Virus record (IMG/VR): IMGVR_UViG_3300012919_000005
Span: 1-64,000 of that record
DNA length: 64,000 bases
From: a virus
Direction: 5' to 3' (one strand)
Below, piece by piece: positions 7,576 through 42,025 of the stretch. The notes beneath the pieces were generated by a model, which saw nothing but the letters and a program-made list of their open reading frames with translations, searched no databases and was not told the DNA's origin. Both the position numbers and the translations under genes were made by a program. Numbering within the stretch: position 1 is the stretch's first letter; every line of letters begins with the position of its first letter.

Positions 7576-7958
7576 GCCTCATAACACCTTATTAAAGAAC
7601 ACGATAAACTGTAAAAGTTATCATACGCCCATGTTTGATTCCATGTTTGACAAAGCACTTTTATAGTTTCATTTCCATTTGTATCGTCTATAATTAATTC
7701 AAATTTATCTACACCTCCTAAACTTTCAAAGAAAGCTACCAAATCATCTATCTCTGCTTTTGGTCGTGTACTAAATGATACAGTCATTGTTTGTTGTAAA
7801 TTATTTATTCCATCAGCTATTCTCTGGCTATACCCATCGCCAAATCCTGATGTATGAACTTTTGGAGAAGAAGATCTAGTAAATCCTTTATCTACAGGAA
7901 CTACCGCAGAAAATCCACTTATATTTGCTCCACCATTTTGTCTTATTCCTGTTGCCAT
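7572..7958 (-). CDS. Minor tail protein M-like (distal tail)
   Basis: FGDGYSQRIADGIN motif; directly follows the tape measure gene. Confidence 0.85.
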   Translation of the reverse strand: MATGIRQNGGANISGFSAVVPVDKGFTRSSSPKVHTSGFGDGYSQRIADGINNLQQTMTVSFSTRPKAEIDDLVAFFESLGGVDKFELIIDDTNGNETIKVLCQTWNQTWAYDNFYSLSCSLIRCYEA

Positions 7959-11464: not shown

Positions 11465-11466
11465 TT

Positions 11467-11832
11467 TTATTTAACTGCGTTTCCGCCTTTGTTCTTTGAA
11501 CTTTTTCTTTTTCTTTCTAAGTCTTTATTAATAGTTTGTGAGTTTCTTGCTTCTATATGTTTTAAAAATACTATACATAATTGTCTTTCTTTTATATTAA
11601 ATTCTTTTAACATAGTTCCAAGTGCGGAATAATCTTTTCCTAAGTATGAACCACTCATTCCTTCCCATCTATCGGGAAGTAAATCATGTATTGTAAAAGC
11701 TTCTTGTACTTCTATTGGAAACTCACTTCTATCTGGTGGCATTTTATCTGGGTCAGGCTCTTCTCCTAACTCCTCACATACTCTCAAATATGTGTCTATT
11801 GGTAGCATACCTTCTTTATAATGTCTATCCAA
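11467..11832 (-). CDS. Tail assembly chaperone, C-terminal (GT-like) part
   Basis: LPDRWEGMSGSYLGKDYS motif; frame is open back to the slippery site at 11865-11871. Confidence 0.75.
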   Translation of the reverse strand: MDRHYKEGMLPIDTYLRVCEELGEEPDPDKMPPDRSEFPIEVQEAFTIHDLLPDRWEGMSGSYLGKDYSALGTMLKEFNIKERQLCIVFLKHIEARNSQTINKDLERKRKSSKNKGGNAVK

Positions 11833-11849
11833 TTTTGCAAGTATTTCTA

Positions 11850-12278
11850 CTACTTGCTGTGAGAAAAATTTTCTAGGTCACCTACCACCTCCGTAACCCA
11901 CATGTCGAAGTCAGACGCATTTTTCATAAGTATTTCTGCATCTTCTTGACTATAATCTAACTCACCATTTAAATCTTTAACGTTAGCTAAATTAACTAAA
12001 AGCATTTTTTCTAAGTATTTGTACTTAAGTCCTTTCCAACCTTTTATTACTGCTTTACAGTATTCGGTTAAAAATTTATCGTCGTCCATTTGCTCTTCAA
12101 ATGCTCTAGTTTTTCTGTTGAACTTTTGAGTAAGACATTTACTTCTTAATTTAAGTAACTCTTCTCTTGCTAAGTAACAGAGGTCAACAGTAAATCCTTC
12201 AAATTCAGGATAGTCTACTGTTACTGTTTTACTTGGAGTTAATAAACTCGCTAGTGATACTTTTTTGTTTTCTTCCAT
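11850..12278 (-). CDS. Tail assembly chaperone (G-like)
   Basis: Lies between tail tube and tape measure genes; VIKGWKGLK motif. Confidence 0.8.
   Translation of the reverse strand: MEENKKVSLASLLTPSKTVTVDYPEFEGFTVDLCYLAREELLKLRSKCLTQKFNRKTRAFEEQMDDDKFLTEYCKAVIKGWKGLKYKYLEKMLLVNLANVKDLNGELDYSQEDAEILMKNASDFDMWVTEVVGDLENFSHSK
11865..11871 (-). other. -1 programmed ribosomal frameshift site A-AAT-TTT
   Basis: XXXYYYZ heptamer in frame near the end of the chaperone gene; the -1 frame reads FSQQVVEILAKLDRHY into the downstream ORF. Confidence 0.75.
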
Positions 12279-12289
12279 TTGTATTCCTT

Positions 12290-12315
12290 AAAAAAGGGGA
12301 GGAGTTACCCTCCCC
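12290..12315 (-). terminator. Intrinsic terminator after the tail tube gene
   Basis: GGGGAGG/CCTCCCC stem followed by a T-run on the minus strand. Confidence 0.7.
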
Positions 12316-12328
12316 GGGTTAATTGGTA

Positions 12329-13483
12329 TTAACTACCTGTATAAGTAACTTTTGCTTCAAACTGATCAGCAGTTGTCGGATCTACTGAGGCTGGTAAAGC
12401 ATGGAAACTTGTTTCTACTGAAATTATATCATCAATAGAATGAGCGGGTACTTCAAAGTGACATTTCGGTAAATCGATTTGTATCTTTGGAGCTGTTGTT
12501 CCACCTATTTTAAATACTGTATTAAAACTATTAGTTACAACTGTATTAGCTTCAATTAAGTCTTCAAATAAGTCTGCACTTCCACCTGTCTCGTTATTTA
12601 AATAACAAGTAAAGTTTCCTGAAACACTTCTTGTTCCTGTAACATGTCCTAATGGTTGGTTAACGACTCCTAAAGTTTCTGGAGTTAAGTAAGTAATATT
12701 ATTTTCCATTGTTATATTACCACCTGTTAACACTAAGTTATAAACACCATTAGATGATGCACCTGGGAATGTAGTTGTGTCTGCAGCTGTTACTGCTAGC
12801 TGAGTTAATCTATTTCTTATGAAATTACCTGTTCCTGTTGTTCCTTCAGAAATTAATGTGCCAGAAGCTAGTGCACTTTCGTCAGTAATCATTGAAGCAT
12901 TACCTGACCAAGTTGCAGTTGCTATACCATCGATATCAAAATCAATAGATACAGAACTTACTACACAATTAGCTAGTTTGTAGAAGGTTTCCCCACTACC
13001 TTGGGTTGCACCCATTTCAAAGAACAAATCAAAAGTTGCCAATGCTGGTACTTCTGAGTTTGTGAAATCAAAGACAACATTTGATGTTGAGTTGGTTACT
13101 GTATCACTCCATGAAGCTTCGGTTGCACCATTAGTTTTAGTAAACGTTGCTGCTCCCATAAAGCAAGCCCATAAAGCTTCCTCTACTGCGTGATGGTGAT
13201 TATCAGAACCTGAGCCTTCCCAACCATTAGTCGCTCCAGCTGTTGCTTGGAACGGTCTTAAATAAGTTTGGAAAGACCACTCAGCTGGTGCATATGAATC
13301 AGTAAACATTTGTCTACTTCTTCTGCTTTTACCGCTGCCGTCTGCCATTTCATTCAGAGTAATTTCACTTGTGTTTGTGCCTTGTGAAAAACTGAAGCCA
13401 TCTAAAACAGGGATAAGCCACTTGGACGAATCCTTTATTAAATAAACTTCGGTATCTCGGCTAAAATAAAATTTATCTGCCAT
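12329..13483 (-). CDS. Major tail tube protein (T5 pb6-like)
   Basis: IPVLDGFSFSQ, PAEWSFQTY, NNITYLTPETLG and TGTRSVSGNFTCYL motifs. Confidence 0.9.
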   Translation of the reverse strand: MADKFYFSRDTEVYLIKDSSKWLIPVLDGFSFSQGTNTSEITLNEMADGSGKSRRSRQMFTDSYAPAEWSFQTYLRPFQATAGATNGWEGSGSDNHHHAVEEALWACFMGAATFTKTNGATEASWSDTVTNSTSNVVFDFTNSEVPALATFDLFFEMGATQGSGETFYKLANCVVSSVSIDFDIDGIATATWSGNASMITDESALASGTLISEGTTGTGNFIRNRLTQLAVTAADTTTFPGASSNGVYNLVLTGGNITMENNITYLTPETLGVVNQPLGHVTGTRSVSGNFTCYLNNETGGSADLFEDLIEANTVVTNSFNTVFKIGGTTAPKIQIDLPKCHFEVPAHSIDDIISVETSFHALPASVDPTTADQFEAKVTYTGS

Positions 13484-29702: not shown

Positions 29703-30067
29703 TATACCTCTATTGCGAATATTTTATCTTTATCTACCTTTTCTAAATCAAAATTTATTGAAACTCCACAACCACAAGAAGACTGCTCTTTTGGGTTGAT
29801 AAACTTAAATACTTCATTTAGTCCTTCTACTTGAAAGTCTAATGTCATTCCTACTAAGTATGGAACTGATATTTTATCTATTAGTATCCTAAAGAGTCCA
29901 TAATCCAATTCCACGTCTTCTTCAGTAGCTGCATTATTAGTCCGATCAAATACATACTCAAAACCAGCACACCCCCCACCAGTAATACCCAAGCGGATAC
30001 CAGTAAACTTCTCTCTTTCCTGTTTCTCCAAAATCTTGGTGATTGCTTCATCTGTAATCTCTATCAT
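29702..30067 (-). CDS. iscA: Fe-S cluster carrier IscA/HesB
   Basis: GGGCAGFEY and NPKEQSSCGCGVS motifs. Confidence 0.92.
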   Translation of the reverse strand: MIEITDEAITKILEKQEREKFTGIRLGITGGGCAGFEYVFDRTNNAATEEDVELDYGLFRILIDKISVPYLVGMTLDFQVEGLNEVFKFINPKEQSSCGCGVSINFDLEKVDKDKIFAIEV

Positions 30068-30258
30068 GGCATATTGTCGCCGTAGAACTCTCTACATTGC
30101 TCTTCAAAGTCTGAATCCCAGTATTCGTCTGTTTTCTTTTTATTTTTGTGAACTTGAGTTCTGCCGTGCTTTGGTGTCTTTTTTCGTGTGAATATCTTAT
30201 CGTAGTTATCTCTGAACTGCTTTTCGTTTGTTGGTCTTCGTTTGCTTCCCTTTCCCAT
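30064..30258 (-). CDS. Small hypothetical protein
   Basis: MGKGSKRRP...NYDKIF; GGAG RBS. Confidence 0.65.
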   Translation of the reverse strand: MGKGSKRRPTNEKQFRDNYDKIFTRKKTPKHGRTQVHKNKKKTDEYWDSDFEEQCREFYGDNMP

Positions 30259-30314
30259 CTTCTACTAATCTCCAAACATTTTGTATTCTATTTTGTTTCA
30301 TAAACTTATGAATA

Positions 30315-30728
30315 TCATTTATTATCTTTGTCATGTTGCTTCTGCTCCCAGTTTTCAATTGCTTTTTTAATCGAATCTTCAGCTAAAACAGAACAGTGTA
30401 ATTTTATTGGAGGCAATTGTAATGCCTCGGCTATGTCTTTATCTTTTATTAATTTGGCTTCTTCTATGCTAAGGCCTTTCAGCATTTCAACAAACATAGT
30501 AGAGGAAGCAATTGCGCTTCCACAACCATAGGTCTTAAACTTGATATCTGTAATAATATCGTTTTCATCTAGTTTAAGTTGTAACTTCATGACATCACCA
30601 CATGCGGGTGCTCCTGTCATTCCTGTTGCTACATTTGGGTCTTTTGGATCAAACCGACCGACGCTAAACTGCTGCGGACTGTTCAAGACTCCGTAAAATC
30701 TTTCTGTGACTTCTTTACTATAGGCCAT
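30315..30728 (-). CDS. iscU: Fe-S scaffold IscU
   Basis: GAPACGDVMKLQ, FKTYGCGSAIASS and LPPIKLHCSVLAE motifs. Confidence 0.95.
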   Translation of the reverse strand: MAYSKEVTERFYGVLNSPQQFSVGRFDPKDPNVATGMTGAPACGDVMKLQLKLDENDIITDIKFKTYGCGSAIASSTMFVEMLKGLSIEEAKLIKDKDIAEALQLPPIKLHCSVLAEDSIKKAIENWEQKQHDKDNK

Positions 30729-31195
30729 TATTTTTTCTCTTCTTTGAGAAGCTTGGACATAAGCTTCCCATAGTTCCCTGTGCCAAAGGCACCATCATTT
30801 ATTTGTACATTAGTTTGATTTTTAATATTTGTAGCTTTTGCTTTTTCTAGTTCTGCTTGAGCTTTTAGTTCGTCCATTCTCATTTTGTGGGCCATTTGTA
30901 GTAAGTCTGCGAGGTCTTTGCTAGTATATATTTCCGACTCTTCGGCTTCTTCCATTTTCTTATCAATCAAAGTATCTAATGTGTCCGCAAGTTTAAATCT
31001 ATTTCTATACCCTGTGTCTAGATATACAGTGTCAATATATTGTTTGACTTCTCTGCGATTTAATATTTCACTAACTTGCGCTTCTCCTAAACCCATTCTA
31101 AGGCTAACAGTCGGGATTGAGCCATGCTGCAAATATGCATTGGCTATCTCGAGACCCTCTGGGCTTATTTTTGTTGTTAAAGCTACACTTGACAT
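30728..31195 (-). CDS. terS: Terminase small subunit (T5-like)
   Basis: ISPEGLEIANAYL, VKQYIDTVYLDTGYRNR, SKDLADLL and NYGKLM motifs. Confidence 0.8.
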   Translation of the reverse strand: MSSVALTTKISPEGLEIANAYLQHGSIPTVSLRMGLGEAQVSEILNRREVKQYIDTVYLDTGYRNRFKLADTLDTLIDKKMEEAEESEIYTSKDLADLLQMAHKMRMDELKAQAELEKAKATNIKNQTNVQINDGAFGTGNYGKLMSKLLKEEKK

Positions 31196-31203
31196 ATAAA
31201 CAT

Positions 31204-31232
31204 ATTATACTAAAAATATAACCATTTGTCAA
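31204..31232 (-). promoter_or_regulatory. Sigma70 promoter, near-leaderless terS transcript
   Basis: TTGACA-17-TATAAT, 8 nt before the ATG. Confidence 0.8.
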
Positions 31233-31435
31233 GAACTATTTATCCATATGTATCATTATGATACTATACGGCACTTTTTTGTAAGTACCATTTTTTCCAA
31301 AGTTGTACGCGCGGGGGAGTCTGCGGGAGCGTGTCAAGGTAGGTCTGATAACCCCCCTAACTACTGTATAAACGCAGAAAACTACTGTATATACTGTGAC
31401 AATTGTGTGACATCGCTTTTTTGGGTGTATAATTA

Positions 31436-31650
31436 ACTCAATTGCTTATGCGACTGAATATCGGACGGCACAGGGGAAACCCCACGAAGAGACCGCCTTG
31501 CAGATTCAGAAAACAAGATAAACTTCTACTGTTTATCGGTGAAACTCTCTCAGAGAAACTTACGGCAATGAGGTTGGAGACAATCGGTTTATATACTCCC
31601 AATATGTAAACTGCTCACGAATCGAACGCTCGGAACAACGAGGTTAAATA
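31436..31650 (+). ncRNA. Putative structured RNA or leader
   Basis: Follows TATAAT at 31428; stems CTGAAT/ATTCAG, GGG-GAAA-CCC, GATAAAC/GTTTATC; no ORF of 60 aa or more. Confidence 0.45.
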
Positions 31651-31691
31651 AAAATTAAAATTTTCCTTAAATTAAATGCGAGGTATTTAAT

Positions 31692-31874
31692 ATGAAAACT
31701 ACTAGAAAACGATACAAGATTTATCAATTGGTTGAAAAGGAATCATGGCTCGGCAATTATGAATTTTTTGCTCTGTATATGGTTACTACTTCAATACGCC
31801 AACGAATGAGGACTGTATCGAGGTTGAATAAAAGGGGAATCAAAACCAATGTCGTGGTCGAGATTCTAAAATAA
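31692..31874 (+). CDS. Hypothetical pre-early protein
   Basis: GAGG RBS; followed by a hairpin at ~31878-31909. Confidence 0.6.
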   Translation: MKTTRKRYKIYQLVEKESWLGNYEFFALYMVTTSIRQRMRTVSRLNKRGIKTNVVVEILK

Positions 31875-31927
31875 CTATAAACGCTCTCAGACGCTCTCTG
31901 AGGGCGTTTCTTTTATAGGGGGTTTCT

Positions 31928-32116
31928 ATGACTATAGAAAACTTAAAACAAACGATTAGACAAGCTCATACGCTATCTGATACTCAACTAAACTTCGAGC
32001 TAGACGCTATATTGTGTGTGATGGATTTCAACACACAAGCGTTAAGCATGGAAGAATGGAATTATCTCAGAGCAACGAGGTTGCTAATCGAAGAAATACT
32101 AAACAACAGGGTATAA
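31928..32116 (+). CDS. Hypothetical pre-early protein
   Basis: GGGG RBS, 62 aa. Confidence 0.55.
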   Translation: MTIENLKQTIRQAHTLSDTQLNFELDAILCVMDFNTQALSMEEWNYLRATRLLIEEILNNRV

Positions 32117-32178
32117 AACTGTTGGGGTCTAGGCTCGTTACCTAATACAAAAACGAGCCAATTTAATGAGGTAATATT

Positions 32179-32370
32179 ATGGCTAATGCTAATAATAAAA
32201 CGACTTCTGAATTGAAGAAGATGACAAGGACTGATTATGAAAAATTAGTCCGAGACACTTTCGGAGATGAAGAAGGTATCGAGACACTTCTTCGCTCAGG
32301 CATGAAGGGTCTTAAAATGGTGCTTATCGGCATGGGTGTTAAACCTATCGCGGGTAAGAAGTGGGGTTAA
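32179..32370 (+). CDS. Hypothetical pre-early protein
   Basis: GAGGT RBS, 63 aa. Confidence 0.65.
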   Translation: MANANNKTTSELKKMTRTDYEKLVRDTFGDEEGIETLLRSGMKGLKMVLIGMGVKPIAGKKWG

Positions 32371-32374
32371 CGCT

Positions 32375-33247
32375 ATGGTTATGGTTCAAGACTATAGGCA
32401 TAAGCATATCGCTTTAATCCTAGATACTGAAACTTGCTTTAAGAACGAACATCAAGGCTTAATCGCTGAGATAGGTTGGACTTTTGGCAATGTTCTTAAT
32501 AATCAAGATACGCCTACTTGTAGGCGTTTTCTTGTAGCTGATACGCTGTTCAATCCTAACTATTGGTTACATTCTCAAAAATTGAAGAATGTTCACGAAT
32601 CGTTGCAAGGATTAGCAGAGGGTGAAAGGACGGCTTACAAGACTGATTCGAGATATGTTGAATATCTTGAACAGTTAAAGCGACTGAATCAAATCGGAAA
32701 GACCGATAAGGTTCTAAAATCGTGGCAGGAAATATTAGAAATACTTACTAAGGATTTGGCTTTAGTCGATTCCGTAGGTGCTTATAATATGCCTTTCGAC
32801 CTACGAGCAATGCAAACGACAACGAAGAGATTTCATCATTCACATTATGTAGAAATCGAAAGGTTGCCGAAATTTTGCTTAATGGATATGTTCGCTAACA
32901 AGGTTATAAACCGAAGATATTTCGAAAAGGTTGATAATCTAAGCGAAGAAGAGAGAGTAAAATTCATGTCAAAAAGTGGCAAGAATCTTGGGTATTCGGC
33001 TGAGATAATGGCTCGATATATTCAAGAAGACCTTGGGTATGTAGAATGTCATACTGCCTTAGAGGATTCACTAATTGAATATGAACTTGCTCAATACTTC
33101 TTGGATAAATACAAAGATTCATTCTTTGAAAATTATCTTAACAAGATAGGTTCTGTATCTTGGCAATCAATCCGTAAGAGGTTGACTGCTAAAGATAAGG
33201 AAGAGCAACGAGAACTCAATTTCGGAGGGTTTGAAAATGAAACTTAA
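32375..33247 (+). CDS. DEDD(h)-family 3'-5' exonuclease
   Basis: LILDTET, GAYNMPFD and CHTALEDS (Exo I/II/III) motifs. Confidence 0.8.
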   Translation: MVMVQDYRHKHIALILDTETCFKNEHQGLIAEIGWTFGNVLNNQDTPTCRRFLVADTLFNPNYWLHSQKLKNVHESLQGLAEGERTAYKTDSRYVEYLEQLKRLNQIGKTDKVLKSWQEILEILTKDLALVDSVGAYNMPFDLRAMQTTTKRFHHSHYVEIERLPKFCLMDMFANKVINRRYFEKVDNLSEEERVKFMSKSGKNLGYSAEIMARYIQEDLGYVECHTALEDSLIEYELAQYFLDKYKDSFFENYLNKIGSVSWQSIRKRLTAKDKEEQRELNFGGFENET

Positions 33248-33851
33248 ATACATTTTAAATCCGAGAGATAATTGGGAAAGGGCGACACGACATATGTCGC
33301 CCATTCTCGACTATAGAGCAAAGCACGGACTAATAAAGAAGGCTAAGAGGAATACTGACAATCTTTTGAAGGTATTCGCTGAATCAAAAGATGTGTTTAT
33401 TTTCGACCTTGATAAAACGACTTTTATCAGACCGAAGATATTCACTCATAAGATTAAATTTTCTTTCAAGAAGGGTTTCTATCTTGTTGAGGATTTAGCA
33501 ACTTATATCTTTTGGGATTCTTTTATCGTGTCCTTATTTGATAGACCCCTACCACTAGCCAAAAAGATGAAGAGATTCATTCGAGAAGGCAAAAAGGTAG
33601 GTATCTATACTGCTAGGCAATATCGTTGGTTTTCCAAACTTTGGATAAGGTTAAAAATTGGTAAGGTTTCTTTTATCAAATTTAGACCTAAAGGCGATAA
33701 CACTATCGACCACGAGTTGAAGGAAAGGTATCTAAAAGAGTGTATTCATACTTACGATTACTTCACCTTTGCTCATATCGTTGCTTATGATGATAATGCA
33801 GAGATTATCAAGATGTATCATCAAAACGATATAGAGGGTATAAAATGTTAA
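33237..33851 (+). CDS. HAD-family phosphatase
   Basis: FIFDLDKT, IYTAR, K and AYDDN motifs. Confidence 0.75.
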   Translation: MKLKYILNPRDNWERATRHMSPILDYRAKHGLIKKAKRNTDNLLKVFAESKDVFIFDLDKTTFIRPKIFTHKIKFSFKKGFYLVEDLATYIFWDSFIVSLFDRPLPLAKKMKRFIREGKKVGIYTARQYRWFSKLWIRLKIGKVSFIKFRPKGDNTIDHELKERYLKECIHTYDYFTFAHIVAYDDNAEIIKMYHQNDIEGIKC

Positions 33852-34111
33852 GCGTTTCAATGGTTGTCGCAACTGTTGTCTTTTGGAGCATGGGGGTAGG
33901 CTTAGTCGCCTACGCCCTTGCCTTTATAGACAAGAGAATACGAGCGTATTACATCTGTATTATCTTCGGTAATGCAATAATACTTTTAACTAGCCCTTTG
34001 ATTTATCAGAGTGAATTTAATATCGGTATCTTAACTATGGTTATGGTATCGGCTCAGATTAAATCAGGATTAGGAGAAAGGAAACGATTAAACAATGGGG
34101 GTTGGTTATGA
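33845..34111 (+). CDS. Membrane protein
   Basis: Several hydrophobic helices. Confidence 0.55.
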   Translation: MLSVSMVVATVVFWSMGVGLVAYALAFIDKRIRAYYICIIFGNAIILLTSPLIYQSEFNIGILTMVMVSAQIKSGLGERKRLNNGGWL

Positions 34112-34274
34112 AATGGTTATTTCAAGATAATCCTACGCCTACCCAAATTGCTAATCGTATAATTTTTAACGCATGGGTAAAACGCCAAAAGAAAACATGG
34201 TTGAATGTGCCTTTTCTAGGTATCTTTCTGATTACTGCTTTGGTTTGGGTTTTATTCTTTATGGGGGTATTTAT

Positions 34275-34469
34275 ATGAATGGTAAACGACCTTTTGTAAG
34301 GGAAAATGCCTATGATTTAGCCGATATGGTAGCAAAAGAATTTGCTAAACATAATCCTGACAAGAAAACGATTCGAGAGATTCAGTCGGAATTATATTTT
34401 AGAACAAATGCTGTTGCTAAAATAATCGGGCAAATCATAGAGACCTATTTTAAATCCTTGCCTAAATGA
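34275..34469 (+). CDS. Hypothetical protein
   Basis: Likely start MNGKRPF with GGGGG RBS. Confidence 0.5.
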   Translation: MNGKRPFVRENAYDLADMVAKEFAKHNPDKKTIREIQSELYFRTNAVAKIIGQIIETYFKSLPK

Positions 34470-34597
34470 GTAAAAATCGGGTGCAACGATTAGAGGAGCG
34501 GTGGTTTTGGATAAGACTAATAATGGAATTTCTTAGAACGATGATTCCTGTTCTTGTCCTGATACTACAAATCGTTGTATTGCAGAAATTACTCTAG
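34466..34597 (+). CDS. 43 aa tail-anchored peptide
   Basis: Own translation MSKNRVQRLEERWFWIRLIMEFLRTMIPVLVLILQIVVLQKLL; paralog at 39926. Confidence 0.6.
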   Translation: MSKNRVQRLEERWFWIRLIMEFLRTMIPVLVLILQIVVLQKLL

Positions 34598-34649
34598 GTT
34601 TGCGATTTAAGGGAACGGCTTGGCTAGAGCCGTGAAAATCTAGCCATTA

Positions 34650-34698
34650 GCGTGGTGGATTCTTTACTCGACTGGTTGGATCCGCCACGCTTTTTTTT
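34650..34698 (+). terminator. Strong intrinsic terminator closing the pre-early operon
   Basis: GCGTGGTGGATTC/GGATCCGCCACGC stem plus T8. Confidence 0.85.
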
Positions 34699-34931
34699 AT
34701 TTTTTATTTTTCTGCGCCTAAGTAGTAGTACGACGACGACTTTTGTAGCGCGTCAGCGCCAAAGTGCAAGTACGAAGTATAAAACTGGTCTGTCTGCGCG
34801 GCCGCGACATTTGTCCCATATTATGCGAAGTCTGTCCTTCCCTCCCCACCTACCCCATTATTATATCACAAAAATTTGAGCATGTCAAGAAAAATATGAA
34901 AAAACTTTTTTGAAAAAACTTTCGCAATTGC

Positions 34932-34960
34932 TTGACAAAACCCATTTCGCCTTATATAAT
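34932..34960 (+). promoter_or_regulatory. Sigma70 promoter (leaderless mRNA)
   Basis: TTGACA-17-TATAAT; ATG at 34968. Confidence 0.8.
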
Positions 34961-34967
34961 AATACAC

Positions 34968-35126
34968 ATGAAAAACGAAAAAACAATCGAAAAGGTCAAA
35001 AGACCAAACAAGAAAGTTTTATTACGCGAGATTGCTGACATGACTGGCAAAAGCATCAGAGACCTTGATAGCTTAGGAAGAAGCAACATCAGCACAATCG
35101 AATGGGTAAAAGAACTTGTGTCCTAA
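34968..35126 (+). CDS. 52 aa protein resembling the A2-like C-terminal domain
   Basis: KKVLLREIADMTG...DLDSLGRS resembles KNEIVNDIASLL...DIASLEKA of the 36122 ORF. Confidence 0.55.
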   Translation: MKNEKTIEKVKRPNKKVLLREIADMTGKSIRDLDSLGRSNISTIEWVKELVS

Positions 35127-35699
35127 TTTCTGAAGTGTAAGCGACTTTATTACTCAACGCTAGACATCGGTCCCTATTGGCACGGGACGGTTGTCCGCTT
35201 TTGCGCGCCGATTTTACCACATCTATTCTAGCTTGTCAATACCTGCGTGAAAAATAATTCAACTTTTTTATTTGCTAAGTCTCCCTAAAACAAGGGTCTT
35301 GCCGACCTTCTCGCAAATCCCCTACAACCCCCATTCTTACTCACTTCGCAAACCTTATAAAATAGGGTTCTCCAGTGATAGTAAGTACTAACTATGCGAA
35401 GACCATGGCACAAGTGTTTCAAAGGTAGCCGCCCCGCGCGCCCAAGTGCGAAAACGATAAGTGCCAAAGTGGTGAGCCTGCGCCAATAAGTGCAAAACTG
35501 GTAAGTGCTAGGTCTACTTTAGTGGGCAAGTGGCCGCCGCGAGTCTAGAATAAGTCTTATTTATATTGTATCATGCTTTTAAAGACTTGTCAAGACTTTT
35601 GCTGACTTGCGCCGACTTTTTTAAGGCTTTGCTACGGTTTCGCGTCCGGCCCCCGAGAATTCCTTTGCGTAAGTTTATTAATATTTCTTTTGCATTTGC

Positions 35700-35728
35700 T
35701 TGACACTACATCAATAGCTTGATATAAT
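35700..35728 (+). promoter_or_regulatory. Sigma70 promoter of a putative ncRNA
   Basis: TTGACA-17-TATAAT. Confidence 0.85.
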
Positions 35729-35738
35729 ATATACATAA

Positions 35739-35873
35739 TTTGAAGTGAGGAAACCACCGAACACCAAAAGCGACCTACGGGTCGAGAGAGTAGAAGTGAT
35801 TCGCTGTAGGAATTGAAGCTATACGGCAAAGATTCAAAAAAATGTTGGCAGTCTTCCCCGAACTCGCTTTAAA
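35739..35873 (+). ncRNA. Putative ~135 nt structured ncRNA
   Basis: Closing stem TTTGAAGTGAG/CTCGCTTTAAA (2 G-U pairs); CGACC-TACG-GGTCG hairpin. Confidence 0.6.
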
Positions 35874-35915
35874 TTATACTTGACAAGACAATGTCAGCGT
35901 GATATAATATTAAGT

Positions 35916-36032
35916 ATGAAACAGAAAAGATTACCGAAAAAAATGACTGCCGAGATGAAACTCGTAATAGTAAATCTAATAGCCATTGGAGTAGGAGTAG
36001 CAATACTGATATGGGACACATGGTTAAGGTAA
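35916..36032 (+). CDS. Leaderless 38 aa membrane peptide
   Basis: Promoter at 35880-35908; MKQKRLPKKMTAEMKLVIVNLIAIGVGVAILIWDTWLR. Confidence 0.55.
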   Translation: MKQKRLPKKMTAEMKLVIVNLIAIGVGVAILIWDTWLR

Positions 36033-36121
36033 GTTTGAAAAAGATTAAGCAATCACTTGACAAAACCTTAAACGCAGTATATAATATAAAGTATAAATTA
36101 AATATTAAAACAGGAGTAGAA

Positions 36122-36451
36122 ATGGCATCAGCTAAAAATTACACAGATGAAATGGTCAACACAATGACCGAACAATACCAAGCTAATCCGACAAGGGAAA
36201 CTGTTGACGCACTAGCAAGAGAATTTGGCAAAACTACAAGAAGTATTATTGCTAAGTTATCAAGAGAAGGCGTATATGTTGCTCAACCAAGAACAACAAA
36301 AACAGGCGAGCCTATCGTTAGCAAAAATGAGATTGTCAATGACATTGCTAGCCTTCTACAAGTTGAAGTTGATGACATCGCTTCTCTTGAGAAAGCAACA
36401 AAGATTGACCTCAGAAACTTAGTGGAAAGACTCGAAGCAGTCGTTCAGTAA
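36122..36451 (+). CDS. T5 A2-like DNA-binding protein
   Basis: Promoter at 36057-36085, AGGAG RBS; RSIIAKLSREGVY...DDIASLEKA. Confidence 0.65.
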   Translation: MASAKNYTDEMVNTMTEQYQANPTRETVDALAREFGKTTRSIIAKLSREGVYVAQPRTTKTGEPIVSKNEIVNDIASLLQVEVDDIASLEKATKIDLRNLVERLEAVVQ

Positions 36452-36516
36452 GAAAGTGATGAGGTAGTGTTAAAACTACCTCGCCACAGTCAAGATAACC
36501 TCGTTAAAAATAGTTC

Positions 36517-36545
36517 TTGACAAAAGGTTATTAGCGAGATATAAT
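36517..36545 (+). promoter_or_regulatory. Sigma70 promoter of a putative ncRNA
   Basis: AAAAATAGTTC-TTGACA-17-TATAAT. Confidence 0.85.
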
Positions 36546-36569
36546 ATATCTTATAAAATAAAAAAAGAA

Positions 36570-36700
36570 CAGTAGTGAAACTACGCAGACAATGACCAAC
36601 ATTGCGTAGTTTGAAAGTGGTAAACCTACTCTAGCTATGAAAAATACCCTATCACATAGCAGATAGTGCACTTTGGGAAAGTGGCGGGATTTAACTACTG
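36570..36700 (+). ncRNA. Putative ~130 nt multibranch ncRNA
   Basis: CAGTAGT/ACTACTG closing stem; AAACTACGCA/TGCGTAGTTT, GCTATG/CATAGC and CACTTT/AAAGTG arms. Confidence 0.6.
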
Positions 36701-36725
36701 AGCTCAAGAAAGTGAAAAATAGTTC

Positions 36726-36754
36726 TTGACAAAAGGTTAAAAGCTTGATATAAT
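36726..36754 (+). promoter_or_regulatory. Sigma70 promoter of the large ncRNA
   Basis: AAAAATAGTTC-TTGACA-17-TATAAT. Confidence 0.85.
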
Positions 36755-36760
36755 ATACAT

Positions 36761-37567
36761 ATCAAAAACAAAAAAAACAAGGGGATTTCTGACTCGCCAA
36801 GCAAGTAGTAATCTGAGCATTAGCCAGCATCACTACAGCGAGAGTCAGAAACCACGAGAGGCATCTCATTAAATATTGCCGTATGCTCTTTCAATGATTA
36901 GAGGGACACGATATCAGAGTAAATCATTCGACAGTTGCAGGTTGCTAGTAGTTAACAGATTCACGGAAGAATAAGGGAACTAGCCGTTTTAACTCAAACG
37001 ATAAGGAGTAAGTGCAATACTACAGCAGTAAGTGTGTAAGTGCGTAGTCTCAACCGATTCGGTAGCAGACATAAGAAGACCTTCTCACGAGGGCAAAGCC
37101 GACCAGTTAGCCTGTAGTTCCCACTTCTCGAGCAGTTTGTCGAAACTTAAAAACCTACGGGATTACGCAGTATTACAGTAGTAAAACAGTAAATCTTCGC
37201 GTGATTGACACCAGATACAGCGATAATATCAGGGAGTGTTTAGTAGCAAAACGCTTCGGTCATCAAGTCCTGCAGATGTAGGAAACGACAGATAAAGGTG
37301 AACTACCATAAGAACGGCATCTCTATCTCTAGTGTAAAAGTGATGATTGTAAAGAGACGCTATAGTAGACAAATGACTTCTCGAACATCATTTGAAGTTT
37401 GCTAGAGTTCTTTACCAAACTAGCACTTTCAACCTAGTGTAAAAGGTGTAGGTTTTTAGGACGCTATTGTAATAAAATGCCGACCTACTGCACGACAAAG
37501 GAGTAAACTTTCTAACTGTGTAAACAGATTAAGTTTGAAGGGCGACTCTTCGGAGTCGTCTTTTTTT
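36761..37567 (+). ncRNA. Putative large (~800 nt) structured ncRNA
   Basis: Own promoter and terminator; no ORF of 60 aa or more on either strand; many local and long-range helices. Confidence 0.7.
37538..37567 (+). terminator. Intrinsic terminator
   Basis: GGCGACTC-TTCG-GAGTCGTC plus T7. Confidence 0.9.
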
Positions 37568-37668
37568 GTCTCAAATGCAGATATCACAAAATTTCAAGGT
37601 TAATTTAAAAAAGTTCTTGACAAACAACTTAACGCTTGATATAATATATAGTATAAAAAGGAGAAAAA

Positions 37669-38016
37669 ATGGATATATGGACAATGCTTAAACAAATTGA
37701 GAAGTCTGGAGACTGCTTAATTTATGGAGTGCTAGAGATACAAGGTGTAGCAGAAGATTTATCTGGCTGGCCTGAGTTCGATAGTAGTGAACCTATGAGC
37801 CACTTATATCTCATGGATTCACAGGACATACCAAAGCAACTTATGTTAGATGCCTTTCAAGTAGCATACAACAATACAAGTTGCGAGTATGACTCTTACA
37901 ACAATATGCTAGAAGCAGTTGGAGAGTATATAATAGAAGAATTAAAAAAGAAGCAGTGCGTATGTGGAACAATAGATTGTGAAGATGCATATGGCTGCGT
38001 AACACACGGAGTATAA
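37669..38016 (+). CDS. Hypothetical early protein with C-terminal Cys/His cluster
   Basis: Promoter at 37617-37645, AGGAG RBS; CVCG...C...C...H. Confidence 0.7.
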   Translation: MDIWTMLKQIEKSGDCLIYGVLEIQGVAEDLSGWPEFDSSEPMSHLYLMDSQDIPKQLMLDAFQVAYNNTSCEYDSYNNMLEAVGEYIIEELKKKQCVCGTIDCEDAYGCVTHGV

Positions 38017-38018
38017 GA

Positions 38019-38309
38019 ATGGCAGATAGTAGAAAAACGAAGGGAGTCAAAGGCGACCAAAGTGGTAAAGTGATGCCATTCCCAACTCTCGATAGAGTAG
38101 CATTCTATAGAGAACACTTACAAAGAAGTATGCGTTCTACATTAGAGTTATACTCTGAATACATAAACATACAGGATAGGCTAGTATCAGAAGTAATAGA
38201 GTGCGAAAACTGTATGCTAGAATTAGTAGAAGAAATAGGCAGACTTGAAAAAGTCTTAAATCAAACGGCAATACATCAAAAGGAGGTGCACGATGCCAGC
38301 AAAATTTAA
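38019..38309 (+). CDS. Hypothetical coiled-coil protein
   Basis: GGAG RBS; in operon. Confidence 0.6.
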   Translation: MADSRKTKGVKGDQSGKVMPFPTLDRVAFYREHLQRSMRSTLELYSEYINIQDRLVSEVIECENCMLELVEEIGRLEKVLNQTAIHQKEVHDASKI

Positions 38310-38511
38310 ACCAAGTGAAAAAATATACAAGCGAGGAGTTCCTGCTAGTAAACAAAAAACTAGGCATTACTACCTGCACAACACACCAAAGCAAGAGTTA
38401 TTTGATTACATCAATAAACATAATGCTAAACCTAAAATTAGACAAAAGTGCTTAAACGAATTAGTTCGCAGAGGTATCAAAGTAGTCTGGGAGGTGCAAA
38501 GTGGCAGTTAA
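38293..38511 (+). CDS. Small basic hypothetical protein
   Basis: AGGAGG RBS; KCLNELVRRG. Confidence 0.65.
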   Translation: MPAKFKPSEKIYKRGVPASKQKTRHYYLHNTPKQELFDYINKHNAKPKIRQKCLNELVRRGIKVVWEVQSGS

Positions 38512-38644
38512 AAGTAGATGGCAACAAGCACATACCTCGCACAAGAAGAAAACGGCACAAGGCGATTCTCACCCAAGAATTAGCTTAAACATGAACAAAA
38601 ATAAAAAGCGTTCATTTAAAAAATACAGGGGGCAAGGCAGATGA
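38501..38644 (+). CDS. Small basic protein ending KKYRGQGR
   Basis: Own translation; GTG start with GGAGG RBS. Confidence 0.55.
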   Translation: MAVKSRWQQAHTSHKKKTAQGDSHPRISLNMNKNKKRSFKKYRGQGR

Positions 38645-38929
38645 GAATAGTATATCTTCCCCAGACCGAGTATAAAAACTACCAACGCAAAGTAGCAAAA
38701 CTTAAGCAAAAGGGCATTAATTTAGACATAGTAGTAGCACAACCAAAGAAAAGAAAGGTAAAGCTAACTGTAAACACTGAATACGATTGGCAGGAGTTAG
38801 ACAGACTATGCGAAAGTTAATCAAAAAAATTAACCACGAAGTATGGCGACCTTATGATAGTGGAGTAGTAGATAATCTACTGCTTACTATCGGGGTCGCT
38901 TTTTTCGTATATATAATAGGAGTAGGCAT

Positions 38930-39328
38930 ATGATAAATGAATATGGCAAATTTGTGGACTCCACCACAAGTAGCGAATCTAAGTATACAGGTGACCTAGT
39001 AGCAAGACTAACAGTTTTGCAGACCAAACACAAAGATATCGCATGGAGTAGATTAATGACTTCTGCTATAGGAATGTTAGCAGAAAGTGGTGAATTTGCT
39101 GAAATAATGAAAAAGATATTATTTCAAGGCAAAGTAATGAATGATGATAATAGGTATCATATGAAGCGTGAACTAGGAGATATCCTTTGGTATTGGATTC
39201 AAGGGTGCATTGCGCTAGGTTATGAACCTGAAGATGTAATGAAAGAGAATATTTCAAAGCTAGAAAGTAGATATCCGAATGGTTTTGAGATTGCAAGAAG
39301 CGAATACAGACAAGAGGGGGATATATAA
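38930..39328 (+). CDS. mazG: MazG-like nucleotide pyrophosphohydrolase
   Basis: ESGEFAEIMKK, RELGDILWY and NISKLESRYP motifs. Confidence 0.88.
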   Translation: MINEYGKFVDSTTSSESKYTGDLVARLTVLQTKHKDIAWSRLMTSAIGMLAESGEFAEIMKKILFQGKVMNDDNRYHMKRELGDILWYWIQGCIALGYEPEDVMKENISKLESRYPNGFEIARSEYRQEGDI

Positions 39329-39933
39329 TGGCAAATCATGTATATTTTAATATAGACCTAAGTTTAGATGCAGGTCAATCAGAATTAGTAGAGAAACTAG
39401 GTAATTCTTGTCGCCATGCTCAGGGAGAGATGCAGTGGATAACTTATGAAGTAGAAACTCTACCTATATATCCTGTGCCTTATGATGAAGAAGACTGGTA
39501 TAGCTGGGGTTGTGAACAAATGGGAGCTAAGTGGGTGAGCGTAGATGACTGGAATGAGAATATTATTAGTGGTCATTCAGCTTGGAGTCCTCCAATACCT
39601 TTTATTACAAACCTAATACAACACATATACGACCAAGTAGGTGGTATACCTAGTGCAAAAATGACATATGAAGACGAGTTTAGAAACTTTATAGGAGTGT
39701 GTGAAGTATGGATTACAGGTGATGATGTGGATTGGGATTACTACGAAGTAGAAGGTAGTGATTTGAATGAAGCTATGCAAGAGTGGAGTGGCTGGGATAT
39801 TGACAGTCCAGAGTTTGACTGGTGGGCTTTAACTGAAGCTAAAAATGGTGATAAGTATGAGCCTCAAGAAGTAATAGATGAAATGGTCTATGGCTTCTTT
39901 GAAGATAAGGAAGTAAAGGTGAGACATGACTAA
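39328..39933 (+). CDS. Acidic protein, DUF1281/YubB-like
   Basis: WYSW...GAKW...SAWSPP motif. Confidence 0.55.
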   Translation: MANHVYFNIDLSLDAGQSELVEKLGNSCRHAQGEMQWITYEVETLPIYPVPYDEEDWYSWGCEQMGAKWVSVDDWNENIISGHSAWSPPIPFITNLIQHIYDQVGGIPSAKMTYEDEFRNFIGVCEVWITGDDVDWDYYEVEGSDLNEAMQEWSGWDIDSPEFDWWALTEAKNGDKYEPQEVIDEMVYGFFEDKEVKVRHD

Positions 39934-40066
39934 GCAAATGAGAAAAAGACAGAAGAAGTTAGAATACGAACTAGCGAAAACAAAACACACGCTTGAACTT
40001 ATAAGAACGATAGTGCCAGTTGCAGTTCTAATTCTACAAGTAGTAATTCTAAGTAAGGTGATATAA
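39926..40066 (+). CDS. 46 aa tail-anchored peptide
   Basis: Own translation ...LELIRTIVPVAVLILQVVILSKVI. Confidence 0.6.
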   Translation: MTKQMRKRQKKLEYELAKTKHTLELIRTIVPVAVLILQVVILSKVI

Positions 40067-40323
40067 TGACTGAGTATAGTGAAAGAGTAGTAAAACGAGC
40101 TAAAGAAATAGCTGCTGAAGCTTGGGCAGGTAAAATAAGGGATATTCATATGCACAGGCTAAACAGTATGTGGTATGAGCCAGAACCTGATGTTGCTAAA
40201 GACCAAGGCGTGACTGATATAACCTACAATAGTGGTAAAATTACGAGAGATGGTAAGACGATTGTAGAGGGAGTAACTGGAGAAGACCTAATATCAAAAT
40301 GGGAGAAAACGAATGAATTATAG
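40066..40323 (+). CDS. Hypothetical protein
   Basis: TAATG-coupled ORF. Confidence 0.6.
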   Translation: MTEYSERVVKRAKEIAAEAWAGKIRDIHMHRLNSMWYEPEPDVAKDQGVTDITYNSGKITRDGKTIVEGVTGEDLISKWEKTNEL

Positions 40324-40639
40324 TAAAGAAATGACGCTAGATATGGTGAGTTGTTATAAGGAAGCTCCAAACCGTGCCACCGTTGCGATTCTCGCAGAAA
40401 GGTATGGCAAGTCGGAGAAGTCAATAATTGGAAAGCTATCTAAAGAAGGTGTGTATCAAAGGCAAGAGTATAAAACAAAAGCTGGAGAGAAGCCAATAAC
40501 AAAGGCTGAGATAGTAGAAAATCTAAGTGGAGAACTGAACGAAAATTTGAGTGGGCTAGAGAAAGCTCCGAAAGAAGTATTAAAACGATTGTGGTTTGCA
40601 CTAGAGGAATATAGATGGAGGGCAATATGCGAAGACTAG
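40313..40639 (+). CDS. A2-like DNA-binding paralog
   Basis: NYSKEM...KSIIGKLSKEGVY...LEKAPK aligns with the 36122 ORF. Confidence 0.7.
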   Translation: MNYSKEMTLDMVSCYKEAPNRATVAILAERYGKSEKSIIGKLSKEGVYQRQEYKTKAGEKPITKAEIVENLSGELNENLSGLEKAPKEVLKRLWFALEEYRWRAICED

Positions 40640-40848
40640 TAATGACAAGTAGAGGACTCGGAGTGTGCGAAGGAGTACAAAAACGACATGGAGATTTATT
40701 ATACCTAGAAGTGACGCTAAAGACTGGAGAAAAATTCTGGGAAATGAATACGGATTGTCGGTATATAGACCTTGAAGTTGAAATTGAGGAAATGAAAAGA
40801 CGCAAAAGATTAGACCAAATTACAGGAAAAATAGATAAAAAATTTTGA
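40615..40848 (+). CDS. Hypothetical protein
   Basis: Overlapping ORF at the operon end. Confidence 0.55.
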   Translation: MEGNMRRLVMTSRGLGVCEGVQKRHGDLLYLEVTLKTGEKFWEMNTDCRYIDLEVEIEEMKRRKRLDQITGKIDKKF

Positions 40849-40894
40849 AGTTGGGCGAAGTCGTCGCTTAGATTAGACGCATTTGTAGTAAATT

Positions 40895-41090
40895 AATGAA
40901 AGACCGATTGCATGTTAGTAGTCGGTCTTATATATTATTTATTTAGATTAAAACTGTTTCTCTCGGTTTTTGCTCTCGTTTCATCTCTAGTCTCTTCTTC
41001 GCTTACGCTCGAAGAGCCTTAGTCAAAGATAAATCGAGAAAACCTTCGAGAGGAAAGAGATTACAATTACTAAAGTAATTAATATAATTT
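40895..41090 (-). ncRNA. Putative rod-shaped ncRNA or origin-associated hairpin
   Basis: Promoter TTGCTT-17-TATAAT at 41097-41125; long bulged hairpin 40957-41056 with a GUAA loop; terminal hairpin 40900-40929. Confidence 0.45.
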
Positions 41091-41170
41091 ACATATATTA
41101 TACCACAACTTTTGCAAGAAAGCAAGTGATATTTTTGGGTAGGTTATCATTTGAGGGGTCTGGGAGCGTC

Positions 41171-41398
41171 TTATCTCCGAGAAAATTTATTCCTCTGACG
41201 ATAGTTAGTAGGATTTTGATTGGATTTTTTAAGATGTCTCTTCTTTCCTTCGTTCTTTTTGCGTTTGCGTTTTGCTGTTGGTTTCTCATAAAATTCAAGT
41301 TCACGGCATCTTTCTTTTATCTTAGCCGTCTCACATTTCTTACGAAAAATCCGAATTGCCTTTTCTGTAGGCATATTTTTACAATAAACGCTAGGCAT
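41171..41398 (-). CDS. rpsU: Ribosomal protein bS21
   Basis: EKAIRIFRKKCE...EFYEKPTAKRKRK matches the bS21 pattern. Confidence 0.88.
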   Translation of the reverse strand: MPSVYCKNMPTEKAIRIFRKKCETAKIKERCRELEFYEKPTAKRKRKKNEGKKRHLKKSNQNPTNYRQRNKFSRR

Positions 41399-41561
41399 TT
41401 ACCACCTTTCCAAAAGTCCAACCTCGTTTTCGAAGGTAATGTATTTGAGAATAAAGTTGCTGTTCACTTACCTTTAGCTCTTTACATATCTCGCTAGTAG
41501 GTAATACACGATAATTATCGCGTAAGTATTGTTTTTCAGCCTGAGTCCATCTTTTATTCAT
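41391..41561 (-). CDS. Small HTH protein (leaderless)
   Basis: MNKRWTQAEKQYLR...QIHYLRKRG; promoter at 41568-41596. Confidence 0.7.
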   Translation of the reverse strand: MNKRWTQAEKQYLRDNYRVLPTSEICKELKVSEQQLYSQIHYLRKRGWTFGKVVNA

Positions 41562-41864
41562 ACACATATTATACAAAAATTCTGAGCATAAGTCAAGAAT
41601 TATTTTTCACCATCTTAAAAATTGTTCTTGACTTGGCTTCAAAATAGTAGTATAATATATACATTAATTTAAGGAAAACAATATGAATAATGATATCGCA
41701 TTTTTAATTTGGTTAATTCTGACAAATATAGCAACTTACTTTTATTGTAAGTCATATTTTATAAAATTTACCATAGATGTTCTTGATGAAAAAGGCTTAC
41801 TGTTAGAAGAACCAAACGGAAAATAATTCTTGACAGCAGGTGCAAAATTTAGTATAATATATCT

Positions 41865-42025
41865 GTAGTTAGATTAATCTAGCTAAGGGATTTGGGAAGG
41901 ACATAATCCGTTCTATAAAACAAGTTCTTTCTGCATCTAAAGACATTCGTTTTAGGATTATGGGAACTACTACCGAAAGGAGTAGAAATATAACAGATGC
42001 AAAGCTTACTGAAAAGGAGTAAACA
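41865..42025 (+). promoter_or_regulatory. Structured 5' leader of hsp20
   Basis: Promoter at 41830-41858; several helices, a possible pseudoknot, and an SD-overlapping hairpin. Confidence 0.55.

Follow-up and report, generated by a model that had tools for sequence, protein, structure and literature searches.

A tandem array of consensus sigma-70 promoters occupies positions 35700 to 37645 of the window analysed here, which comprises bases 1-64000 of the 75.5-kb IMG/VR virus record IMGVR_UViG_3300012919_000005 (estimated completeness 77%; G+C content of the window 35%). We hold, with a probability of about 0.75, that this array drives structured non-coding RNA genes, whatever the mode of action of those RNAs. 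The most prominent among them is unit C, which runs for ~810 nucleotides (nt) from its own promoter to its own terminator. Covariation among related loci shows unit C to be under selection for secondary and pseudoknotted RNA structure, and its depth in ocean RNA libraries indicates that it is a very abundant RNA in nature. This phage is, as far as its encoded proteins tell, a distant, uncultured marine relative of T5: its polymerase and terminase share 45-49% identity with their counterparts in T5-like phages (Proteus PM135, Pectobacterium My1 and Vibrio Demerecviridae, among others).

The promoter array and its RNA units

Six sites on the + strand match the sigma-70 consensus at 12 of 12 positions (TTGACA-17-TATAAT, starting at 35700, 35880, 36057, 36517, 36726 and 37617), and all of them, as judged from sequence, have both hexamers at the expected spacing of 17 ± 1 nt. 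A preliminary description of this DNA had reported six consensus promoters within 2 kb, and every one was found exactly where it had been placed. Across the whole window, perfect TTGACA-N16-18-TATAAT sites number 17, against 0.15 ± 0.39 in shuffled sequence. An extended -10 TG accompanies four of the six (cassettes 1, 2, 5 and 6). The promoters are embedded in repeated cassettes, which form a 64-nt family (five copies, 64-81% identity) and a 53-nt family (three copies), and the copies are alike in the spacer, in the initially transcribed region and, upstream, in the A/T-rich flank.

The same description had assigned sequence devoid of open reading frames (ORFs) to three of the promoters, and to the others a leaderless peptide of 38 amino acids (aa), an A2-like DNA-binding gene and a protein-coding operon. 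This layout is borne out. No credible ORF was found after promoters 1, 4 and 5 (35735-35879, 36552-36725 and 36762-37572), the ATG at 35916 lies 8 nt past the -10 of cassette 2, and a Shine-Dalgarno-led operon begins at 37669 after the last promoter. ARAGORN finds no tRNA gene in the window, in agreement with the earlier observation, nor in the other 11.5 kb of the record. The features of the array are as follows.

35700-35728, + strand: promoter cassette 1, TTGACA-17-TATAAT with extended -10 TG
35735-35879, + strand: unit A, ORF-less candidate RNA of ~145 nt, proposed from folding energy
35880-35908, + strand: promoter cassette 2, extended -10 TG
35916-36032, + strand: leaderless 38-aa ORF (MKQKRLPKKM..., hydrophobic, membrane-like), ATG 8 nt after the -10
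36057-36085, + strand: promoter cassette 3, perfect consensus
36122-36451, + strand: predicted 109-aa A2-like DNA-binding protein (remote homologue of T5 pre-early A2), phrog_1725, with a Shine-Dalgarno site
36517-36545, + strand: promoter cassette 4, perfect consensus
36566-36706, + strand: unit B, structured RNA of ~140 nt, from compensatory changes in few sequences
36726-36754, + strand: promoter cassette 5, extended -10 TG, driving unit C
36762-37572, + strand: unit C, structured non-coding RNA of ~810 nt, own promoter to own terminator
36785-36853, + strand: 5' hairpin of C, UUUCUGACUC.../...GAGAGUCAGAAA, lineage-variable, in a leader not alignable across the family
36854-37262, + strand: conserved core of C, ~410 nt, 5' half of the unit, with covarying helices
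37155-37199, + strand: H-type pseudoknot in the C core, from covariation on alignment A3 and duplex energies
37263-37536, + strand: variable 3' domain of C, differing in sequence and length among lineages
37537-37572, + strand: intrinsic terminator of C (hairpin 37537-37564), 12-bp stem, UUCG loop and U7 tract
37617-37645, + strand: promoter cassette 6, extended -10 TG, driving the protein operon that starts at 37669

Unit C keeps its place in related phages. Among 80 IMG/VR loci fetched by way of the A2-like gene, 79 have downstream room and were examined for C; an iterated nhmmer profile matches 59 of these 79, always on the strand of the A2-like gene and 236-1214 nt downstream of it. A separate motif scan of IMG/VR gave 45 further true matches. 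Every related locus has a consensus promoter ~90-130 nt upstream of the conserved core and shows the same succession of consensus promoter, 800-1100 nt, terminator, ~55 nt and next consensus promoter. Synteny of the cassettes, which the preliminary description had suggested checking, is thus preserved both in the promoter-terminator layout of C and in its position after the A2-like gene. The end of C has the hairpin and U tract of an intrinsic terminator, whose position is also kept in related loci. At the other end, the leader (the first ~90-100 nt) is lineage-specific, and its alignment across the family gave no consensus structure.

Evidence for RNA structure in C comes from three alignments. 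On a MAFFT alignment of 22 diverse cores (A1), RNAalifold predicts 41 pairs, with compensatory double changes in 27-28 of them compared with 18.3 in shuffles. Pairing is possible in 97.0% of the A1 cells versus 77.6% in shuffles, none of 500 of which reached the observed value, and it falls to 31-45% when the 3' partners are slid. Alignment A7 (50 distinct sequences fitted to a covariance model) gives 95.7% versus 71.4%, with 12 of 14 pairs covarying, figures that lean toward the model's own structure since A7 was built from a covariance model of the 3' core. In alignment A3 (ten sequences, MAFFT, pseudoknot included) the values are 91.2% and 70.6%, and 14 of the 23 pairs are double-changed. 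Covarying core helices lie at 36856-59/36864-67, 36893-97/36924-28, 36944-50/36978-84 and 36985-89/36996-37000, and further ones at 37134-38/37143-47, 37211-17/37227-33 and 37235-40/37250-55.

The pseudoknot is formed by stem Pb (37155-58/37178-81), whose loop (37166-70, 37173-76) pairs with the downstream linker (37195-99, 37189-92). Among sequences, Pb appears as CUAC/GUAG, CGAG/CUCG, CCUG/CAGG, CUUG/CAAG or CAUC/GAUG. The first loop-linker sub-helix appears as CGCAG/CUGCG, GUAUGA/UCAUAC, GUGUAA/UUACAC or GUUGCA/UGCAAC, and the second as UUAC/GUAA, ACC/GGU, AUC/GAU or UUC/GAA. Double changes affect seven of the nine pairs of the pseudoknot helix in A3. In 14 sequence types, the duplex of the loop with its own linker has a mean energy of -8.7 kcal/mol, compared with -4.6 kcal/mol for a foreign linker. 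Paired cells contain G·U 50 times and A·C 7 times, and the C structure therefore makes sense only as + strand RNA. The minimum free energy (MFE) of C folding has a z score of -3.07. Compensatory changes above controls and the lack of a conserved ORF, the generic marks of a structured non-coding RNA, are both found in C.

A hairpin motif of unit A, GUGAGGAAACCAC (35744-35757), is the terminal hairpin Pe of the C core in most sister phages, and the window's own C has another loop at that place. RNA modules thus appear, from these sequence matches, to have been shuffled between units.

Unit B consists of a closing stem CAGUA/UACUG (36570-74/36696-700), a long variable hairpin and a GCUAUG/CAUAGC hairpin. 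It occurs in the window and in three other IMG/VR contigs only. Across two diverged types (four sequences), 15 of its 35 predicted pairs are changed on both sides, and these double changes span the long hairpin, a 6-bp helix and the terminal hairpin (GCUAUG/CAUAGC versus GCUACU/AGUAGC), which gives reasonable support for unit B as a structured RNA. It has no terminator in the window; in L007 and L008, two sister loci, a U-run comes after the closing stem. The window's B probably serves at the same time as the 5' portion of a longer B-C transcript. A 16-nt segment of B (UAGUUUGAAAGUGGUA, 36607-36622) is 88% complementary to positions 37421-37436 in the 3' domain of C, which could be a contact or chance.

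In unit A, a 15-bp stem joins the 5' and 3' ends; the unit also has a UACG-loop hairpin and carries the GUGAGGAAACCAC motif. Its MFE is -38 kcal/mol, with a z score of -3.25 on the + strand versus -0.69 on the - strand. It is present only in the window and in the 98%-identical locus L006, whose three substitutions all fall at unpaired positions. Unit A is a candidate structured RNA; as it has no terminator and reads into cassette 2, it may equally be a structured leader of the peptide mRNA. Neither A nor B has a tRNA shape by ARAGORN or matches RF00005 at E<=10 (34400-37800), and the T-arm motif GTTCRANYC is not found in 34.4-37.8 kb.

RNA libraries, sister loci and the wider family

The stretch is present in marine metagenomes of ten studies and in six RNA-library runs. 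Contigs of four metatranscriptome runs from two studies were mapped on 30000-42000, with runs X19 and X20 (small share) excluded. Summed contig depth over 36416-37618 peaks at 1450, 246, 53 and 92 in the four runs. The structural and other flanking genes have a depth of <=12 and 35213-35613 has 0, although the uncovered intervals at 32.0-32.8, 35.2-35.6 and 38.8-39.6 kb are not evidence of silence. Zero-mismatch contigs, i.e. contigs of the same strain, behave in the same way, with depths as listed.

36878-37179: same-strain contig, depth 1213
36418-37110: same-strain contig, depth 186
flanking genes: same-strain contigs, depth 2-18

DNA carry-over would give even cover, and C is for this reason considered abundant as RNA. 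Environmental metatranscriptomes, one of the checks named in the preliminary description, thus contain C in abundance (depth 53-1450). Two contigs, 36311-36907 and 36224-37427, represent continuous RNA over the 3' end of the A2-like gene, B and C, and one RNA contig extends from the 3' part of C into the operon; unit A is covered by RNA contigs from 35769 onward. The 36224-37427 contig, from run X17, ends at 37427 in at least 24 A residues that are absent from the genome. This poly(A) may mark an intermediate of decay or processing that was polyadenylated within the variable 3' domain of C, or it may be an artefact of the library.

The 20 loci that match neither the profile nor the covariance model of C keep the layout: a promoter ~100 nt after the A2-like gene, an ORF-poor stretch of 690-1320 nt and the next promoter. 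Their units form other sequence groups, examples being L028:1145-2132, L024:4063-5075 and L041:1510-2458, as well as the groups L012/L026/L030 and L069/L085. The largest of the non-C groups (seven loci) has 128 predicted pairs, 46 of them with double changes, and shares the short modules AACCGAUUCGGUAG and GUGAGRAAACC with the window RNA. To judge from these comparisons, the clade seems generally to carry a large structured RNA in the slot behind the A2-like gene, and the shared modules point to a modular superfamily of large RNAs across this slot.

In the interval that separates the A2-like gene from the C promoter, sister phages carry small membrane-protein genes and a ~70-nt module with a covarying CAA-loop hairpin. 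The same interval also contains an anticodon-less tRNA-like element, whose parts are an acceptor-type stem of 5-7 bp, a hairpin with a UNCG loop (AAGUGUCUACGGAAGCAC), a mini stem and a T arm of canonical type (GGUUCGACUCC). Its acceptor and T stems covary between loci, and the L036 copy scores 26.7 bits against the Rfam tRNA model, below the gathering score of 29. Sequences resembling tRNA-Glu(UUC) genes, with a CCA or near-CCA end, lie in this slot in four loci. ARAGORN found no tRNA or tmRNA in 16 sister loci, the four tRNA-Glu-like loci not being among those run. These elements belong to the sister loci only.

L007:5545-5625, L009:1795-1880, L029:1665-1750, L036:525-603, L054:370-450: anticodon-less tRNA-like elements
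L014:~5495-5570, L054:~460-535, L055:~2205-2280, L081:~565-640: tRNA-Glu(UUC)-like genes

Genome setting, proteins and further elements of the island

The island is positioned immediately right of the divergence point between two transcription directions. Structural genes (large terminase, protease/capsid fusion, major tail protein, tape measure) run leftward from ~31 kb, and replication genes (DnaB-like helicase, family-A DNA polymerase, second helicase) run rightward from ~32 kb. Searches of 50,697 isolated-phage records gave no match to 35400-38000 by blastn or to the A2-like protein by tblastn. A motif scan of GTDB representative genomes gave 70 matches, all due to chance and none fitting the C profile (one, for example, is a conserved coding stretch in Pelagibacteraceae), and thus no clue to the host.

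The A2-like label given in the preliminary description is supported at the level of remote homology. The 109-aa protein matches phrog_1725 with an E value of 9e-8 (residues 5-104, profile positions 17-123 of 129), and T5 A2 itself matches the same family at 4e-52; direct BLASTP between the two proteins is weak (E 0.003). The protein thus matches the profile of the T5 A2 family over most of its length, and DNA binding is predicted for it. More than 595 relatives are present in IMG/VR.

The 38-aa ORF has no PHROG match. Both of its substitutions relative to L006 (n = 2) are at third codon positions, which weakly supports coding. Two small ORFs of the region, of 52 aa (34968-35126) and 38 aa (35916-36032), start 8 nt after the -10 of perfect promoters, and their mRNAs would therefore be leaderless; the genes around them use GGAG-type ribosome-binding sites. 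Upstream of the island, a 206-aa protein (33231-33851) has a DxDxT motif of the haloacid dehalogenase (HAD) phosphatase type and matches phrog_415 ("polynucleotide kinase") at E 5e-12; it could take part in the metabolism of RNA ends or of nucleotides. Neither this protein nor a 303-aa protein is similar to T5 Dmp or A1, and comparison of the neighbouring proteins with PDB and NCBIfam was uninformative.

The island is bigger than its six promoters. A seventh + strand promoter is found at 34932-34960 and minus-strand promoters at 34888, 35239 and 35593; these two sets, together with the missing terminators of A and B, are three points that go beyond the preliminary description.

34932-35126, + strand: seventh promoter (34932-34960, consensus site) with the leaderless 52-aa ORF (ATG 34968)
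35131-35239, - strand: promoter (35239-35211, 11/12 match) followed by a two-hairpin element, from hairpin conservation

The minus-strand element is ~70 nt long. Its first hairpin is GUCCC-GUGCCAAUA-GGGAC, and its second takes the form AGCG/CGCU, AGGC/GCCU or AGUU/AACU. In at least seven sister loci the element is kept with compensatory changes in both hairpins, and its orientation to the A2-like gene there is opposite to that in the window. The element may be one more small RNA encoded in the island.

The pentamer AAGTG is 5-fold enriched across 34600-37620, on the + strand only (19 copies versus 3.9 expected). Seven copies cluster at 35412-35528 as AAGTGC(A/G)AAA-type repeats within GC-rich DNA (35400-35530) and are reminiscent of the GTGCAAATCCGACA repeats in the injection-stop region of T5. 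The motif also occurs at unpaired positions in A, B, C and the tRNA-like elements.

Explanations, known systems and meaning

We propose that an early, probably pre-early, region of T5-like type begins with this 2-kb stretch and is organised as a stable-RNA island. Its near-ideal sigma-70 cassettes would all be fired by unmodified host RNA polymerase upon DNA entry. Three of them would launch proteins (the 38-aa membrane-type peptide, the A2-like protein and the next operon) and three would launch ORF-less RNAs, the main product being unit C, with its conserved multi-helix core of ~410 nt, its H-type pseudoknot and its lineage-variable 3' domain. Early expression of the island is likely, since its promoters need no phage factor and its neighbour is homologous to a T5 pre-early gene. 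We infer that the RNAs act in trans. By analogy with other large phage RNAs, it is conceivable, and is the mode of action that we tentatively prefer, that C builds up as a stable, compact RNA or ribonucleoprotein particle whose target during take-over would be the host's RNA or translation apparatus. Possible partners of such a particle would be the A2-like protein, two basic proteins of 72 and 47 aa encoded at 38293-38644, and ribosomes.

Several points weigh against this explanation or narrow it. Contig depth is a crude measure, with one value per assembled contig, and the runs were chosen for holding the stretch; contigs give neither strand nor transcript ends nor a time course. The claim that half of the promoters drive non-coding RNAs stands for C, with its strong covariation, and reasonably for B, whose support amounts to ~2-3 independent sequences with an MFE z score of -2.6 that is similar on both strands. 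For A, known from two near-identical copies and thus without comparative support, the claim goes no further than thermodynamics. The structural conservation whose absence the preliminary description had proposed as a refutation is nevertheless clear in B and C. Three separate small RNAs, as pictured there, are less likely, since no terminator follows A or B and single RNA contigs span the A2-like gene, B and C; the transcripts of the units probably overlap. As the window phage has no tRNA or tRNA-like element, a link to tRNAs is weaker for this genome. No cultured relative with the locus is among the 50,697 isolated phages. The likeness to GOLLD and ROOL, the large phage RNAs discussed below, is one of context and size.

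Anti-defence decoys, an idea raised in the preliminary description, provide another way of explaining the early RNAs, which would then titrate or mimic the targets of anticodon nucleases, toxin-antitoxin toxins, CRISPR effectors or RNA-binding proteins. Great abundance and a place beside a homologue of a T5 pre-early gene would suit such a role, as would the ~5-fold enrichment of AAGUG on the + strand across the island, and the anticodon-less tRNA-like elements that sister phages carry in the same slot could act as decoys. The window phage has no such element, however, no ToxI-type repeat array was found, and a multi-helix, pseudoknotted core of ~410 nt goes far beyond the complexity of known RNA decoys or antitoxins, so that we regard decoys as unlikely. 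Much less probable is a DNA-level element, that is, a T5-like injection stop with untranslated repeats or a replication origin, whose promoters would serve activation or priming and whose RNA would have no function. T5-like phages do keep 1-1.8 kb of conserved untranslated DNA near A2, the AAGTGC(A/G)AAA repeats at 35400-35530 resemble the GTGCAAATCCGACA repeats of T5, and tandem promoters precede structured DNA at some phage origins (T7, T4). But the excess of G·U over A·C in the conserved pairing speaks for one-strand RNA and not for duplex or cruciform DNA, a dedicated terminator closes unit C, and C is hugely over-represented in RNA libraries; moreover, there are no DnaA boxes in 34.5-37.7 kb, and the C profile finds nothing like itself in T5 bases 1-12500.

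If C, and likewise A and B, were a long cis-acting leader or attenuator controlling read-through into downstream genes, one would understand why A and B lack terminators and read into the following units, and why contigs bridge the A2-like gene, B and C and in one case reach the operon from C. Against this stand the strong terminator at the end of C and the operon's own perfect promoter 50 nt further on, an arrangement kept family-wide. The downstream gene is not conserved (one relative, versus C in 59 loci), and a pseudoknotted leader of 800-1100 nt would be without precedent, which makes this reading highly improbable. The least credible alternative is that the ORF-less units encode unannotated micro-proteins and that their conservation reflects coding. 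Leaderless small ORFs do lie nearby (34968, 35916), and C contains ORFs of 32-49 aa. Yet the longest, of 49 aa, is shortened to 39 aa in a 97%-identical relative; a coding reading of C was rejected because no ORF is conserved and translated-fragment similarities occur on both strands, with jumps between frames, and conservation resides in paired columns rather than in codon periodicity.

As to known systems, Rfam scans of the whole window at the gathering threshold, of 34400-37800 at E<=10 and of six sister loci at E<=1 returned, apart from the sub-threshold tRNA match of L036 given above, chance-level matches only (U6, TUG1, snoRNA, L20 leader). In the literature searched, no such RNA is described for T5-like or marine phages. 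That no described RNA family matches is in keeping with the earlier suggestion of an undescribed system. GOLLD and ROOL are phage-borne RNAs, often near tRNA islands, with one conserved and one variable half, which form nanocages by cryo-EM (PMC12286853). C resembles them in its size class (~600-1100 nt), phage origin, many covarying helices and pseudoknots, high expression and division into a conserved and a variable half. In sister loci, tRNA genes or tRNA-like elements lie beside C, and the window has none. On the other hand, C matches neither covariance model in the scans at E<=10 (window) and E<=1 (sister loci), and its conserved half is 5', whereas that of GOLLD is 3'. It also differs in residing in marine T5-like virulent siphophages, next to an A2-like gene, with a dedicated sigma-70 promoter and terminator. 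Large ornate phage RNAs being a phenomenon already known, we place C among them as a new family with a distinctive setting: the promoter-cassette array, the A2-like neighbour and marine T5-like virulent phages.

In T5, the first-step-transfer region brings together A2, a small membrane protein, strong promoters and long stretches of conserved untranslated DNA (bioRxiv 10.1101/866236). The island has counterparts to these in its A2 homologue, small membrane proteins, clusters of strong host-type promoters and over 1 kb of untranslated sequence conserved near the A2-like gene, and the parallel with the T5 pre-early region is, as far as sequence comparison goes, real but partial. The untranslated regions of T5 have been described as DNA repeats, palindromes and DnaA boxes, in contrast to the island, which is conserved as RNA base pairs. 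Neither the nhmmer profile of C nor its covariance model R1 finds anything in T5 bases 1-12500, and no homologues of T5 A1 and dmp were detected in the proteins compared. DnaA boxes (TTWTNCACA) are absent from 28.9-50.8 kb of the window; the paired DnaA boxes in inverted repeats of a T5-type injection stop are thus not present, and the only long inverted repeats of the region are the promoters themselves.

With the pRNA of phi29, C shares the character of a structured phage RNA expressed from a strong early promoter near one end of the early region; pRNA acts in trans, as we infer for C. pRNA differs in its length (~174 nt), in multimerising on the prohead and in belonging to phi29-like podophages with protein-primed genomes, and no Rfam similarity connects the two. 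To our knowledge, T5-like packaging needs no RNA. The tRNA clusters of T5-like phages are likewise stable-RNA loci in the early region, and the tRNA-Glu-like and tRNA-like elements of sister phages sit in this very slot, but the window has neither, and no tRNA shape is recognised in A, B or C by ARAGORN or by the Rfam tRNA model.

Large non-coding RNAs with intricate folds are rare, and the known classes (rRNA, RNase P, group I/II introns, OLE, GOLLD and ROOL) are mechanistically remarkable. We lean towards the view that C and its sister units form an undescribed superfamily of modular, pseudoknotted RNAs of roughly 0.8-1.3 kb, whose slot is filled in 79 of 79 loci, as a third class beside GOLLD and ROOL. 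Its members may be ribozymes, or RNAs that assemble themselves into particles, at work in the first minutes of take-over. With its complete genomic punctuation and dozens of natural variants, unit C is suited to structure determination. A widespread group of uncultured marine phages gives its strongest promoters to RNAs rather than to proteins. A testable idea for T5-like phages is that RNA carries out part of the early take-over programme. If true, the superfamily reading would suggest that T5-type pre-early DNA, in those conserved "untranslated regions" that have long been a puzzle, can encode functional RNAs.

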